DNA from: Candidatus Micrarchaeota archaeon
GTDB lineage: Archaea > Micrarchaeota > Micrarchaeia > Anstonellales > Bilamarchaeaceae
Assembly (NCBI GenBank): GCA_037440825.1
Contig: JBBITJ010000008.1
Location: forward strand, 15,601-32,669
DNA length: 17,069 bases
Direction of reading: 5' to 3'
Below, piece after piece: positions 914-12,072 of the stretch. The first letter of the stretch is position 1, and each line of letters begins with the position of its first letter. The notes under the pieces are model-generated. The model saw only the letters and a list, made by a program, of their open reading frames with translations. It searched no databases and was not told the DNA's origin. The position numbers and the translations under genes are program-made.

Positions 914-1351
914 ATGTTCATGGAACACAACTCTCAAGTGAACAGGACATTGTCAAGGATACTTTCCATGCCTCATCCGGAATGCCGGAGGGTGCTCAAG
1001 CTTTTTGTGCAGATGGTTCCGCTAAACGAAGGGTCTATGCACGAGCTGGAAAGCACACTTGCCCTCAGGGGCGACCTCTATCAGGTGCTTTCCGACTTCC
1101 GCAAGTGCGCCAGGGAAGTAGAGGCGAAGGCATCATTCTTCGAGAGGAACGGTGAGCATGCGAAAGCCGGGGACCTTTTCACGGCACTCAACGATTTCAG
1201 GCGCGCCGCTTCAGCATACCGCAAAGCCGGAATTGAGCCGCCTGAGATGCAGTCCGAGGAGCAGATTGTGCGAGACGTGCTGAAATACGCGGGCCTGGAG
1301 AATTCGCATGCGTTCAAGCCTGCGCCGGGCCTCGCAGACGTTGCTCCGTAG
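914..1351 (+). CDS. Hypothetical alpha-helical protein (145 aa), possibly with a TPR/SNAP-like helical pair
   Basis: Longest ORF in the gap, with TTTAATAA (888-895) just upstream. The segment KAGDLFTALNDFRRAASAYRKAG has a helical-repeat look. No confident family. Confidence 0.6.
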   Translation: MFMEHNSQVNRTLSRILSMPHPECRRVLKLFVQMVPLNEGSMHELESTLALRGDLYQVLSDFRKCAREVEAKASFFERNGEHAKAGDLFTALNDFRRAASAYRKAGIEPPEMQSEEQIVRDVLKYAGLENSHAFKPAPGLADVAP

Positions 1352-1361
1352 AAGGTATACG

Positions 1362-1391
1362 TTTAAATAATCGCGGCTGGTAAATTTAAAT
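1362..1391 (+). promoter_or_regulatory. Candidate TATA boxes for the tRNA-His transcript
   Basis: TTTAAATA at 1362-1369 and TTTAAAT at 1385-1391, in an AT-rich gap upstream of the tRNA. Confidence 0.5.
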
Positions 1392-1506
1392 CGCCAAACA
1401 ATTAGTCATGCTCATGGCCGCAATCCGATTCGCCTGCTGGCGAATTCCTGCGGCATTCGTTTCACTCATGGCCACAATAGCGTAATGGTAGCGTGGGGGA
1501 CTGTGG

Positions 1507-1585
1507 ATGGTTTCCAGTCTTGAGTTCCGTGTTTCGCATTCAAAACGCGAAACTGGGAACGGAAAACTGGCTGCCGGAGGCAGAC
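1507..1585 (+). other. Archaeal tRNA intron with (relaxed) bulge-helix-bulge splice motif
   Basis: Central 4-bp helix CTGT(1501-1504)/GCAG(1580-1583), with 3-nt bulges GGA(1505-1507) and ACA(1584-1586). Removing 1507-1585 restores the 7-nt anticodon loop CTGTGGA. The intron-side closing helix is weak. Confidence 0.88.
1510..1570. repeat. Heptamer-repeat hairpin inside the tRNA intron
   Basis: GTTTCCA GTCTTGA GTTCCGT GTTTCGC, a 9-nt loop, then GCGAAAC TGGGAAC GGAAAAC TGG. The innermost units pair perfectly (GTTTCGC/GCGAAAC). Confidence 0.8.
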
Positions 1586-1627
1586 ATCCCTAGGCCCGGG
1601 TTCAATTCCCGGTTGTGGCCCTAACCA

Positions 1628-1655
1628 GCCTTCAGTTCTCCGTCTCCAGTTTTGC
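1628..1655. repeat. Heptamer tandem array just 3' of tRNA-His
   Basis: GCCTTCA GTTCTCC GTCTCCA GTTTTGC (7-nt period). Confidence 0.65.
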
Positions 1656-1728
1656 CTATTAGCTCTTTTGCTGGCTGCAGTTTCCATTTATAATATTTGC
1701 ATCTCCATTAACCGCGATGGTGAGAAGG

Positions 1729-2004
1729 ATGCCGAAAAAGCACGCACTGGATTTCCTCCAGCTTTCGAAATCCAGGAAAACTGTCTACGAATACTCCAGC
1801 AAGCAGGTCGGCGCCGCAGACCTGGAAAAGATGCTCGAGACCGGAAAGTGGGCGCCCAGCTGCGGCAACTCGCAGCCATGGCTTAACAAGGTGCGCAACA
1901 ACAGCGACATGGCTTTCGTGATGGTGGCCGTGGAATCCGACTACAACGCTCTTGCAAATTTCGTCTCGAAATTCTGCGACTTGTCCATCTCCCCGCCAGA
2001 ATGA
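1729..2004 (+). pseudogene. Truncated or chimeric nitroreductase-family gene
   Basis: GGTGA RBS at 1719-1723, ATG at 1729. The N-terminus has the nitroreductase signatures SRKTVYEY and KWAPSCGNSQPW. Similarity appears to end at about 1881, and the ORF stops at 91 aa, far short of a full nitroreductase fold. Confidence 0.65.
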
Positions 2005-2017
2005 TCTTGGTGACAGC

Positions 2018-2296
2018 ATGCCTCCCAAAGAACCTGCATACGCGCTCTACGCCGCTGCGGCTATCGCGGCAGTACTGCTCGGCTACGCGTGCTTCGCGTA
2101 CCTCAACCTTCTTGCCATGAGCGAGACGCTGGAAATGCAGAGGGAAGCGTTGGAATCGTGCGTTCCCGGCTCAGAGCAGTTCGCAGAACAGGCGCGAATA
2201 TACGCCGACATGGTGCAGGAGTACAATTCCGAGCTCCGCACCTTTCCGGAAAACTTCATTGCGCCTATATTCGGCTTCAGGGAAATCGAGAGCTGA
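2018..2296 (+). CDS. Short LemA-like membrane-anchored protein (92 aa)
   Basis: GGTGA RBS at 2009-2013 and ATG at 2018. N-terminal TM helix. The C-terminus RIYADMVQEYNSELRTFPENFIAPIFGF matches the LemA C-terminal pattern (Y..V..YN.....FP....A..FGF). Confidence 0.65.
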   Translation: MPPKEPAYALYAAAAIAAVLLGYACFAYLNLLAMSETLEMQREALESCVPGSEQFAEQARIYADMVQEYNSELRTFPENFIAPIFGFREIES

Positions 2297-2307
2297 CTTA
2301 TGCCCAA

Positions 2308-2685
2308 TTACCTTATTCCGGTATCCACGCTCAGGTTTAGCTCCGTGGTCTTGCCTGATTCCACGTAGAATTCGGTGCGCATCTCCCCTCCTGCAGGATC
2401 AGGCTTCACCAATATGTAATACCTGCCGGGCTTCAGGGAAATCCTGTACGTGCCGTCGTCGTTGAGCTTGTATTCCCCCATGTACAATCCGTTTCCGCGG
2501 TATACTATGAGCTTCCTGGCAGCGTAAACCAGCTTCATCTTGTCCGATGTCACGATGCACGGGCTCGTTGGGCAGAGCGGCCCTATAGTCACCTTCCCTT
2601 CGACGTAGCCGTCCGGCTGGGGCTCTGCGATGCAGCCGGCAATCGCCAATATCCCAAGGGCCAATGCGGGCAATCTCATGCGCAT
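2308..2685 (-). CDS. Secreted/lipoprotein with a beta-sandwich (carboxypeptidase-regulatory-like) domain
   Basis: Lipobox-like AIAGC, followed by the motifs GKVTIGPLCP...C, DGTYRISLKPGRY and a C-terminal DTGIR. A GGAGG RBS lies upstream on the minus strand. Confidence 0.7.
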   Translation of the reverse strand: MRMRLPALALGILAIAGCIAEPQPDGYVEGKVTIGPLCPTSPCIVTSDKMKLVYAARKLIVYRGNGLYMGEYKLNDDGTYRISLKPGRYYILVKPDPAGGEMRTEFYVESGKTTELNLSVDTGIR

Positions 2686-2778
2686 GCTTCCTCCCCGACC
2701 AATTAAAAATCTTCCATCCGCGAATCCGCGATTGCTTTATATTCCTTGCCGAGAACAGTCTAACCCAAAAGGGAGGGC

Positions 2779-3765
2779 ATGGACTATTCCAATTTTGACC
2801 TGAGGCACGAGCAGACAGCAGGCATCCAGTACTGCAGGAGCGCGCTCCAAAGCGTCTCGCGCTCGTTCGCCTTCACGATACCGATGATAGAGCCGGAGCT
2901 GCGCGACAAGATCACCGTGGGATACGTGGTCGCGCGCGTGCTCGACACCCTCGAGGACTCGCCCATACCGCTGGAGATGAAGAAGGCGATGATGGACGAG
3001 TGGATAAGCATAATCTCCGAGGAGCCTGCAGGGAGCGTCTCGTTAGGCAAGATATACCAGCGCACAAAAAAGATCGTCTCGGAAAGCTCCAAATACGTCG
3101 CGGACGTCGCGTACTCTGAGCTGATGAAGAACGCATTCAAGGTCTACGCCGCAGTGACGAATTTCGACAAGCCGTTCATACTCTCCCAGCACAGGTGGTT
3201 CAGGGAGATGAAGGAAGGCATGAAGAAATACCTCACCAGGCGCATAACCACGTTCAAGGATTTCGACGAATACACATACTACGTGGCAGGCACGGTGGGC
3301 GGATTCCTCACCGACCTCGTGTGCGAAGGAATGCAGGACGAGGCGCGCAAGGCGGTGCTGAAAAGCACTTACCGGGATTTCGGGCTCTTCCTCCAGAAGG
3401 TGAACATAATACGCGATTTCCGGGAGGACGTGCTGGAAGGCAGGTACTTCTGGCCCAAGGAGCTCATCGGAAACCGCAACGACGCGGATCTCCTGAAAGC
3501 GGAGAATTCCGAATTCGCGCTCGCTGCGCTGGAAAAGATGATTTCGGACGCGAAGGCGCACATGCCTGGAGCGCGCACCTACATAGACAGCATACCTCCG
3601 CGATTCAGGGGATACAGGGCTTTCGCGCTGGTCAATTTCTACATGGCAGTGAAGACGCTCGAGCTCATGGAGCGCAACAAGGGCGTCTTCCTCTCGGCCG
3701 CGCCCCTCAAGATCAGCAAGTCCGCAGTAATCGCGATACTCAAAAGGGCGGAATCAGAAAGCTGA
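2779..3765 (+). CDS. Squalene/phytoene synthase family protein (squalene synthase-like)
   Basis: VSRSFAFTI, first Asp-rich motif RVLDTLED, YTYYVAGTVG, and second motif LQKVNIIRDFRED..EGRYFWP. GGAGG RBS and TTTATAT box upstream. Confidence 0.9.
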   Translation: MDYSNFDLRHEQTAGIQYCRSALQSVSRSFAFTIPMIEPELRDKITVGYVVARVLDTLEDSPIPLEMKKAMMDEWISIISEEPAGSVSLGKIYQRTKKIVSESSKYVADVAYSELMKNAFKVYAAVTNFDKPFILSQHRWFREMKEGMKKYLTRRITTFKDFDEYTYYVAGTVGGFLTDLVCEGMQDEARKAVLKSTYRDFGLFLQKVNIIRDFREDVLEGRYFWPKELIGNRNDADLLKAENSEFALAALEKMISDAKAHMPGARTYIDSIPPRFRGYRAFALVNFYMAVKTLELMERNKGVFLSAAPLKISKSAVIAILKRAESES

Positions 3766-3771
3766 TGCCGG

Positions 3772-4971
3772 TCAGCGAAGCTTCATCGCTGCTTCGCGGA
3801 AAAGCTGCGCCCCCCTTTTCACCACGTTCTTGTCCATCACCAATTCCACAGCCTTGCTGATCCTTTCAATCGTGGGCTCAAGGTAAATGTCCCCGCTTTT
3901 TGCGAGCTCGGGCAGGATGCGCCACGGCTTGCTCCCCTCCAGGATTTCCCGCGCCGCAGCAAGGCAGGTTATCGCAGCCTCCGCCCTCCCTTTCACAAGC
4001 GCAGAATACGCTTTCCTTAACTCCGCCTTCGCCTCGCCTTCAGGCCCCTTTTCGTCAAGCCTGCTGCCTGTGTCAGCGAGCATCGCTATCGCAGCATTCC
4101 AGTTCCCTTCGCCGGCGACCGCGATTATCCTGCTTATTCTGGCTGAATTATCACGATCCCGTTTCCACATCTTCGGAGCCGCGTACTGGTACCTGTCCAC
4201 GAAAGACGCCCAGCCCGCGCACATGCGCACGAGCGCATTGTCCCGCGCAGCCCTGAGCGAGCATTCCCTCAATTTGTTGTACGCGATTATCTTCGCAACC
4301 TGCCCGTTCCTCCATTCGTCGTAGCGGTTCCTGAACGCGACGAGCTTCGCGCACGCCGCGTTCACCATGGGCATCCTGTTCGTCTCCATGGGATCCTTCA
4401 TCATCTCCAGGTAGCCGAAGACCTCTTCCATCTTTTCCTTTCCGAGCCGCTTTGCAGCGGCGCGGTTCCTCCTTATTTCGTCCAGCGCGGCTTCAAGCAG
4501 CTTCTCGATTTCGCCGATGCGCATGCCGTCCATCGCCGCGCCTTCTTTGGCGAGCTCCGCATTCACCTTCTCTATCCTTTCAAGCACCCTGTCCAGCTTT
4601 TCGAAATTCTTCTCGTAGCTTTCGCGCACGTGCTTGAGGCTCCTTACGCCGCTGAATATGTCCGTTTCAACTTCGACCTGTTTCTTCGGGTTTTTCCCGC
4701 CTTTCAGGAATTCCGCATCAATCGCTCCGCTTTTTTCCTTCCGGTATTTGATCCTCACCTTCAGCCCCTCCACCTCCATTTTCAGGAATTCCGGAGGCCT
4801 TGTGAGGAACGGCTGGCCGTTTCCGTCCTTTCCAATATACGATGGCCCTTTTATGCTGGCCAGCCTGCCAGCCAAATTTTTGTCTATGCCCTCGAAAAGC
4901 CCCAGCTGCCTTAGTTCCCTTTCAGCAGTGATTTTATCAGCAAGGGCTTTGGAAGAAACGGTCCTTTTCAT
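3772..4971 (-). CDS. Hypothetical charged, largely alpha-helical protein (399 aa)
   Basis: Long ORF filling the space between flanking genes with natural Lys/Glu/Ala/Arg-rich composition. No family motif recognised. Confidence 0.75.
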   Translation of the reverse strand: MKRTVSSKALADKITAERELRQLGLFEGIDKNLAGRLASIKGPSYIGKDGNGQPFLTRPPEFLKMEVEGLKVRIKYRKEKSGAIDAEFLKGGKNPKKQVEVETDIFSGVRSLKHVRESYEKNFEKLDRVLERIEKVNAELAKEGAAMDGMRIGEIEKLLEAALDEIRRNRAAAKRLGKEKMEEVFGYLEMMKDPMETNRMPMVNAACAKLVAFRNRYDEWRNGQVAKIIAYNKLRECSLRAARDNALVRMCAGWASFVDRYQYAAPKMWKRDRDNSARISRIIAVAGEGNWNAAIAMLADTGSRLDEKGPEGEAKAELRKAYSALVKGRAEAAITCLAAAREILEGSKPWRILPELAKSGDIYLEPTIERISKAVELVMDKNVVKRGAQLFREAAMKLR

Positions 4972-6730: not shown

Positions 6731-6795
6731 GTGGTCCCGGGTCCCCAGTTCTCAGTTTCGGAACTGGAAACCTGGAACGGAAAAACTCGGGCTGC
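6731..6795. repeat. Heptamer-repeat hairpin between divergent promoters
   Basis: GTCCCGG GTCCCCA GTTCTCA GTTTCGG aac TGGAAAC CTGGAAC GGAAAAAC. Inner stem CAGTT/AACTG, outer stem CCCGGGT/ACTCGGG. Confidence 0.8.
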
Positions 6796-11882: not shown

Positions 11883-12072
11883 TTATCTAAATCCAGTTTT
11901 GGATGCATGCGCCGAAATATGTGCATGTTCGAAATGCGGCATCCCATACGCGTTTCCGGTTCCGGGTTTTCGGTTTCGAAACCGAAGATGCGAAACGGGA
12001 AACTGAATTGGGCAATGCGACATACTAGAACAGTTAGATAAAGTTTAAGGGCAATGGATTACACCAACCCTT
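11883..12072 (+). ncRNA. Candidate structured 5' leader (r-leader-like cis-regulatory RNA) of the rpl3 operon
   Basis: P1 TTATCTAA(11883-11890)/TTAGATAA(12034-12041) encloses P2 ATCCA/TGGAT(11891-11904), P3 GCATGCGC/GTGCATGT(11905-11928) and P4 ATG..GCATCCCA(11934-11946)/TGGG..ATGC..CAT(12009-12023). A further hairpin AAGGG..TGG/CCA.CCCTT lies at 12047-12072. Folded by eye. Confidence 0.55.
11952..12003. repeat. Heptamer-repeat hairpin at the tip of leader stem P4
   Basis: GTTTCCG GTTCCGG GTTTTCG GTTTCGA aac CGAAGAT GCGAAAC GGGAAAC, with central palindrome TTCGGTTTCGAAACCGAA. Confidence 0.8.

Follow-up and report, generated by a model that had tools for sequence, protein, structure and literature searches.

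A tRNA-His intron with a relaxed BHB-type splice motif and an interior made of a dispersed heptamer hairpin in a micrarchaeal genome

Canonical archaeal BHB introns at position 37/38 of tRNA genes have a central helix of 4 bp, a 3-nt bulge at the 3' site and cut sites that lie two bases into each unpaired trinucleotide, and they are processed by EndA and RtcB. RtcB can also circularise archaeal BHB introns. Archaeal tRNA introns measure 11-129 nt, with medians mostly of 12-25 nt (PMC4090602). In the Micrarchaeota, Ca. Micrarchaeum acidiphilum (ARMAN-2) has many intron-bearing tRNAs with relaxed motifs and a three-unit epsilon2 EndA (PDB 4FZ2; PMC3488258), an enzyme type that cleaves strict as well as relaxed BHB motifs in vitro (PMC3239211). 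Introns with particular contents have also been described: the transposed introns of Thermoproteales are highly similar over their whole length between tRNAs (Fujishima et al. 2010, as reported in PMC4090602 and 10.64898/2026.10.13.758758), and a tRNA-Trp intron contains a box C/D guide RNA (PMC4090602). The route by which introns arrived in archaeal tRNA genes is still called open (preprint 10.64898/2026.10.13.758758).

Here we analysed a stretch of 17,069 nucleotides (the window) from a genome of the Micrarchaeota, G000 (875 kb, 45 contigs), which carries a tRNA-His gene with an intron at 37/38. This intron is like the canonical ones in its position, its 4-bp helix, its 3-nt 3' bulge, the place of its cut sites after the second base of both unpaired trinucleotides and the presence of EndA and RtcB. 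It differs from them by its length of 79 nt, which is long but inside the published range of 11-129 nt (PMC4090602), by a relaxed 3x3 loop at the 5' site and by an interior that consists of a dispersed repeat. With ARMAN-2, the genome shares the phylum, the three-unit EndA and many intron-bearing tRNAs with relaxed motifs; unlike in G000, repeat-built introns are not mentioned for ARMAN-2 in the available text of PMC3239211, where the word "repeat" occurs 0 times. As in Thermoproteales, related sequence recurs in the introns of different tRNAs. However, only a degenerate heptamer composition is common to them in G000, and most copies lie outside tRNA genes. A transposed intron of the Thermoproteales type was considered and rejected, as the arrays of the His, Thr and Arg introns are not among the top locus pairs. 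The box C/D-bearing tRNA-Trp intron is likewise a long 37/38 intron with structured content, whereas the content found here is a genome-wide repeat; a search of positions 1380-1720 for box C/D or any other Rfam family, with E up to 1, gave only the tRNA and a sub-threshold tRNA-like match. The heptamer family resembles REP/BIME-type palindromes and heptanucleotide repeats in that it is short, hairpin-forming, multi-copy, mostly non-coding and patchy, but it has no conserved full-length element or termini and, in the five genomes searched, no Y1 (RAYT-like) transposase, and its 7-nt units are degenerate. In the part of the literature available to us, we found no description of repeat-built archaeal tRNA introns or of this heptamer family.

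This is no new kind of system: gene, enzymes and the logic of splicing are all ordinary for Micrarchaeota. The unusual part is the content of the intron, a dispersed repeat that recurs at two sites of the same tRNA in different genera. The reading that we prefer, to which we give a probability of about 0.8, is that of a working single-copy tRNA-His(GUG) gene with a BHB-type intron at 37/38, the interior of which is a tolerated repeat passenger.

The plus strand of the window matches the Rfam tRNA model at 1471-1620 (51.4 bits, E 1.1e-08, positions 1-71). We observed that the anticodon loop holds 82 bases where the Rfam model has 3, which corresponds to an insert of 79 nt. ARAGORN with introns allowed also reports a tRNA-His (gtg) here and places an intron of 79 nt at position 37; in default mode it gives no match at this locus, because that mode ignores introns. 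Joined together, the exons give a complete cloverleaf by both Rfam and ARAGORN -i. A preliminary description of the locus had placed the feature at 1501-1586 and these bounds are exact, running from C32 to A38 (Table 1). The intron RNA folded alone reaches -31.1 kcal/mol and the whole pre-tRNA-His -69.8 kcal/mol, with z = -4.16 and none of 200 shuffles equal to it. Among sequencing runs, window positions 1000-4000 were matched by a single DNA run, probably the source of this DNA, and by no RNA run. A Logan contig of that run is the same as window positions 1300-1800, with 0 differences; it comes from the same data through another assembler and is not independent. When both exons were searched with blastn-short, only their own gene was retrieved, and no second tRNA-His, intronless or not, was found in this 95.6% complete assembly. 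ARAGORN listed a second "His" at C2:22507-22622, which we discarded: on inspection its anticodon loop reads CTTGTA, giving TGT, which is Thr.

Table 1. Features of the tRNA-His locus and heptamer arrays in the window (positions of the window)
Feature	Position	Strand	Basis
G-1 and 5' exon of tRNA-His (positions 1-37)	1470..1506	+	Rfam alignment, ARAGORN -i, direct reading
G-1	1470	+	direct reading
5' strand of the central 4-bp BHB helix, CTGT (C32-U35)	1501..1504	+	pairs with 1580-1583
Anticodon GTG	1503-1505	+	direct reading
Unpaired GGA with the 5' splice site (1506/1507)	1505..1507	+	partition function
Intron, 79 nt, canonical 37/38 position	1507..1585	+	Rfam, ARAGORN -i, comparison with relatives
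Forward heptamer array, four GTYYYNN units, 5' hairpin arm	1510..1535	+	unit scan
Inverted heptamer array, four units, 3' hairpin arm	1542..1567	+	unit scan; arms pair in the MFE
3' strand of the central BHB helix, GCAG	1580..1583	+	pair probabilities, relatives
3-nt bulge ACA with the 3' splice site (1585/1586)	1584..1586	+	partition function
A38	1586	+	direct reading
3' exon (positions 38-73, 4-nt variable loop)	1586..1620	+	Rfam, direct reading
Discriminator C (C73)	1620	+	direct reading; CCA not encoded
Three-unit forward heptamer array, tRNA-His 3' trailer	1635..1653	+	unit scan
Second heptamer hairpin (4 + 4 units), intergenic-looking	6734..6786	.	unit scan
Third heptamer hairpin in the window	11952..12003	.	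unit scan

We then consider the splice motif. In the partition function, the four pairs of the CUGU/GCAG helix have probabilities of 0.989-0.997, and the GGA and ACA trinucleotides that hold the two splice sites both come out as unpaired (p 0.97-1.0). With the anticodon stem in its canonical register, a clean bulge of 3 nt lies beside it at the 3' site. At the 5' site, the GAG at 1577-1579, across from GGA, is also unpaired (p 1.0); the two face each other in a 3x3 internal loop, which makes the BHB a relaxed one and not the strict hBHBh' form. The preliminary description of a 79-nt BHB-type intron at 37/38 was right about the site, the length, the CTGT/GCAG helix and the unpaired GGA and ACA, and has to be amended for the supposed 5' bulge, which is this loop. 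Indeed, the strict hBHBh' motif requires two 3-nt bulges, each closed by a helix on both sides; the tRNA-His intron falls outside it, and a scan for the strict motif did not pick up the locus. A relaxed motif, defined by at least one bulge, a central helix and a broad-specificity EndA in the same genome, is present. In an unconstrained fold the anticodon stem is one register off, and the canonical register lies 4.1 kcal/mol higher (-65.7 vs -69.8). Judging from these predicted structures, the intron is apparently spliceable as a relaxed BHB.

A profile search of G000 gave two PF01974 matches. One of them, a 392-aa EndA on G000:C1, aligns end to end with the ARMAN-2 enzyme of PDB 4FZ2 (E 2.8e-145), and a full-length homologue of this EndA is present in 25 of the 25 genomes searched in the order, G000 included. 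RtcB is also encoded in G000. We infer that splicing itself takes place with these enzymes: the three-unit epsilon2 EndA would cut the pre-tRNA at 1506/1507 and 1585/1586, RtcB would join the exons and may circularise the intron, and the CCA would be added after splicing, with G-1 being encoded in the genome. Splicing would be defined by the anticodon stem together with the CUGU/GCAG helix and the unpaired elements at the splice sites (the ACA bulge at the 3' site and the GGA loop at the 5' site), and everything between them would be free to vary. Two observations concern the proteins themselves. The RtcB of G000 is a single 983-aa frame (G000:C12:21585-24377); its Pfam match comes in two parts (1-50 and 46-426) with about 490 residues between them, an insertion that looks like an intein. 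The second PF01974 match (44 bits) belongs to an EndA-like protein of 159 aa (G000:C6:36246-36497; L022 1468-1947, minus strand).

Comparison with relatives supports the bounds of the intron and shows how variable it is between them. We compared 25 tRNA-His genes, which represent 11 genera: an intron at 37/38, of 15-88 nt, is present in 19 and absent from six (G006, G016, G040, G046, G067 and G102). All 19 introns end in the same manner: the 4-nt partner of the CUGU strand is followed by two bases, after which comes A38. The partner forms all four pairs in 15 of the 19 and three pairs in the other four, and five different partners pair fully (GCAG, ACAG, GCGG, ATGG and ATAG). As the CUGU strand is fixed by the anticodon loop, the changes in the partner are one-sided and keep the pairing. 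We take such one-sided, pairing-preserving changes as evidence that the splice motif is under selection.

The interior is built from heptamers in six of the 19 introns, five of them in the genus of G000 (Table 2). In this genus, the introns of G001 and G007 are 15 nt long and free of repeats and share the CUGU/GCAG core with G000; one metagenome contig retrieved by exact-pattern scan also carries the 15-nt form. The sixth heptamer-built intron, an 81-nt hairpin, is in G044, outside the genus, where no more than two anchors were counted in any of the other 11 genes with an intron (the G049 intron, read separately, has one). Flanking ORFs are common to G000 and only G004 and G005, at about 42% amino-acid identity, so in the other congeners the orthology of the locus rests on the tRNA itself.

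Table 2. The 37/38 site of tRNA-His and the abundance of the exact 4-unit heptamer pattern in the eight genomes of one genus (backwards-pattern control: 0-2 matches per genome)
Genome	37/38 intron	Content	Exact 4-unit pattern, matches
G000	79 nt	full heptamer hairpin	76
G004	43 nt	mainly forward units	65
G005	43 nt	mainly forward units	57
G002	at least 72 nt (contig end inside hairpin)	full hairpin	13
G007	15 nt	no heptamers	6
G003	88 nt	hairpin	5
G006	none		4
G001	15 nt	no heptamers	3

A second intron, in the D-arm, is found in five of the 25 tRNA-His genes. That of G102 (L038) is 19 nt long and repeat-free, and the other four, in G003 (L043), G044 (L025), G046 (L026) and G049 (L027), are 71-107 nt long and made of heptamer units. 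At its end, each D-arm intron repeats the 5' strand of the D-stem.

Since the 37/38 intron occurs in 19 of 25 relatives' genes and its helix is fully paired in 15 of the 19, the site predates its repeat fill. On these comparative grounds we consider it firm that the site, which appears to be order-wide, is older than its present repeat content. The suggestion that insertion of a repeat had created the intron finds no support at this site. The other suggestion, expansion of a small pre-existing intron by the repeat, keeps its first half, in that the site came before the repeat, but the course of change looks more complicated than a plain expansion. In a single-gene tree of EndA, the genus is monophyletic (100/99); G002 branches first and then (G006, G003), at 98/94, the remainder consisting of G000, G004, G005 and (G001, G007) in unresolved order. 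The deepest split within the genus has heptamer-built introns on either side; the 15-nt and intronless forms sit at nested positions and may therefore be reductions.

We also aligned the introns of G000, G002, G003 and G044 with MAFFT, and they align in register. The G000 interior has local scores of 22, 20 and 25 against those of G003, G002 and G044, versus 21-32 against unrelated hairpins of G000. Orthology of the hairpin between genomes was dropped, as these cross-genome scores are no higher than those between unrelated hairpins within G000. The hairpin may be ancient and turn over rapidly, or the site may have been filled more than once; in either case the intron site would be old and order-wide and its interior would turn over fast.

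The repeat itself was defined as at least three GTYYY-anchored units with a spacing of 6-8 nt, followed by an inverted array. The tRNA-His intron, with its 4 + 4 units, is a heptamer-array hairpin of this kind. Its interior is one member of a set of dispersed, degenerate (GTYYYNN)n arrays facing an inverted copy. The preliminary description of the intron as mostly heptamer hairpin stands with its four plus four units, the repeat part covering 58 nt (1510-1567) and not about 61. The stem of the hairpin, of about 23 bp, continues the inner helix of the splice motif.

That this hairpin is a repeat of the genome, as first proposed, was borne out by the counts. Arrays of at least three units number 167 in G000 (95 forward and 72 inverted); 10 dinucleotide shuffles average 6.6 such arrays, and the genome read in reverse has 23. 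For at least four units, the values are 75, 0.1 and 2, respectively. The anchor definition was picked after the repeats had been seen, which the shuffle and reversal controls offset only partly. The exact 4-unit pattern has 76 matches and 0 in the backwards control. The 167 arrays correspond to 150 loci, and among the paired loci the order is forward-then-inverted, as in the tRNA-His intron, in 10 of 11 and the reverse in one. On a crude longest-ORF map, made without gene prediction, 85 of the 167 arrays lie mostly within ORFs, which cover 86% of the DNA; the arrays are therefore enriched in non-coding DNA. Contig overlaps aside, the best matches between loci are 20-30 nt long, with no long conserved element.

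Several known types of repeat were tried for this family and rejected. A MITE- or REP-like mobile element does not agree with matches of only 20-30 nt, with a unit order that is not shared between loci and with the absence of a Y1 transposase (Y1_Tnp) in all five genomes searched. A role as terminator or promoter was dropped, since the array loci are spread over all four kinds of crude intergenic gap (12, 21, 14 and 17), with no clear bias. The intrastrand-triplex type, a hairpin followed by a mirror-image array, does not apply either: none of the 23 mirror arrays of G000 forms a mirror-image tail beside a hairpin and there is none in the tRNA-His intron, and the two mirror arrays within 60 nt of an array locus both just overlap its inverted arm. 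The heptamer arrays seem to break the assembly. Several contigs of G000 end in them and overlap there (C9/C23, C14/C29). C39 duplicates a part of C1 (82.6-83.2 kb) that includes a tRNA gene, at 96-100% identity.

The abundance of arrays varies at least ten-fold among congeners. In genus g32, the exact 4-unit pattern has 42 matches in G044 and 65 in G049 versus 0-4 in the others (G053 4, G046 1, G067 0), and in the genus of G000 there are 57-76 in G000, G004 and G005 versus 3-6 in G001, G006 and G007. G013 and G022 have 24 and 4. This patchiness points to bursts and decay or to a factor specific to certain lineages. Possession of a heptamer-built intron is only loosely linked to richness in arrays, with G003 and G049 as exceptions, and the genomes compared are not independent. 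Indeed, G003 has only 5 strict-pattern arrays and yet two heptamer-built tRNA-His introns.

In G000, the arrays are found preferentially at tRNA genes. An array lies within 60 nt outside the gene for 16 of 34 Rfam tRNA genes, versus 75 of 877 crude ORFs (binomial P = 4e-9). On the strand of the tRNA, arrays of the 5' flank are of the inverted type in 10 of 12 cases and those of the 3' flank of the forward type in 6 of 7, a bias that is expected from forward-then-inverted hairpins on either side of a gene. The introns of other tRNAs were also inspected for heptamers: arrays of at least three units are present inside those of Thr-UGU and Arg-UCU, and a degenerate one inside that of Ser-GCU (the identities of these tRNAs were read manually). 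Two other introns of at least 45 nt have no arrays, one of about 77 nt in C13:19-167 and one of about 45 nt in tRNA-Asp. In addition, Rfam tRNA matches longer than 100 nt number 7/34, 8/31 and 9/27 in the array-rich G000, G004 and G005, and 5/16, 6/22 and 3/19 in the array-poor G001, G007 and G006. Long tRNA genes being as common in the array-poor as in the array-rich congeners, the heptamers are one filler among several. The 16S gene (C27:7363-8906, 1544 nt) has no sizeable insert, and a 23S gene was not found in the G000 assembly. On C27, the 16S gene lies just 3' of tRNA-Tyr, a heptamer hairpin and tRNA-Asp.

We propose that arrays accumulate in and beside tRNA genes because such sequence would do no harm in introns, leaders and trailers. 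The hairpin of the tRNA-His intron would then be a passenger, neither the maker of the intron nor its means of spread, its neutrality being an assumption of ours. A stronger version gives the family a part of its own: heptamer hairpins would be an active DNA-level agent of the growth of tRNA introns, possibly of their birth. This we hold only tentatively, and we would not bet on it. On this view, one family of fast turnover settles preferentially in tRNA transcription units, fills two tRNA-His sites across genera and also fills three other 37/38 introns in G000.

Another possibility, which we judge unlikely, is that the hairpin is kept for a function. It could clamp the inner helix and so present the weak 5' site, or the excised intron could act in trans; in the latter case the intron, possibly circular, would pair with roughly 150 complementary arrays in other transcripts. 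The hairpin does lengthen the helix beside a 5' site that has no proper closing helix, heptamer fills recur in 6 of 19 introns at 37/38 and in 4 of 5 D-arm introns of tRNA-His, and arrays elsewhere are partly complementary to the arms of the intron. However, congeners cope with a 15-nt repeat-free intron or with none at all. Moreover, interiors compared between genomes score 20-25, against 21-32 for unrelated copies within one genome; being no more alike than unrelated copies, they have nothing specific conserved in the hairpin.

A circular form of the excised intron had also been proposed as a possible source or vehicle of the repeat; its RNA would then be copied back into DNA and seed new hairpins. 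Circularisation by RtcB and the clustering of arrays at tRNA genes would fit with this idea, but the other results speak against it and we consider it highly improbable. No RVT_1 reverse transcriptase domain was found in G000, and the 24-nt circular junction has 0 matches in the genome with up to 4 mismatches. Other loci match only the heptamer part of the intron (query 67-131). A strict BHB is found at the base of 2 of 10 intergenic hairpins, which is no excess over the mean of 2.86 in a null with mismatched flanks. There are about 150 loci for 3-4 introns. Finally, when a donor copy was sought in G000 by permutation of the unit order, the order in the intron was not significantly common to any other locus (p = 0.13 for the best match and 0.05 for the sum of the top six). 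What the locus illustrates is change in intron size; spread of the repeat by the intron is not supported. A reading of the locus as a pseudogene, broken by insertion of a repeat, could invoke the long insert and a 5' site without a strict bulge; it is scarcely credible for the only tRNA-His found in G000, with both exons intact (51.4 bits), G-1 and C73 in place, an insert exactly at 37/38, a helix partner fully paired in 15 of 19 relatives and a broad-specificity EndA encoded in the genome.

With the gene read as a working tRNA-His with a tolerated passenger, the locus bears on the origin and the size change of archaeal tRNA introns, which are unsettled. It offers a compact natural series, in which the site is constant and the helix partner conserved while the interior ranges from 15 to 88 nt. 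Such a series raises the question of how much of an intron EndA actually reads, and that of whether repeats enter introns by insertion or by expansion in place. Should insertion or growth by single units be observed among near-identical genomes, BHB introns would have, in the heptamers, a first donor sequence to be identified.

The surroundings of the gene show two further features. In the 5' leader, positions 1411-1424 copy 1465-1478 (14 nt, 13/14 identical, 54 nt upstream); the copied stretch consists of the last five bases of the leader and of nine bases from the start of the gene, counting G-1, and its copy overlaps a strong hairpin in the leader (about 1417-1455) at the 5' arm. Just 3' of tRNA-His, within window positions 1717-2296, lies an ORF of 95 aa that matches a nitroreductase profile over its first 40 positions only and is followed by an overlapping ORF in another frame; this pair may be a split or frameshifted gene.
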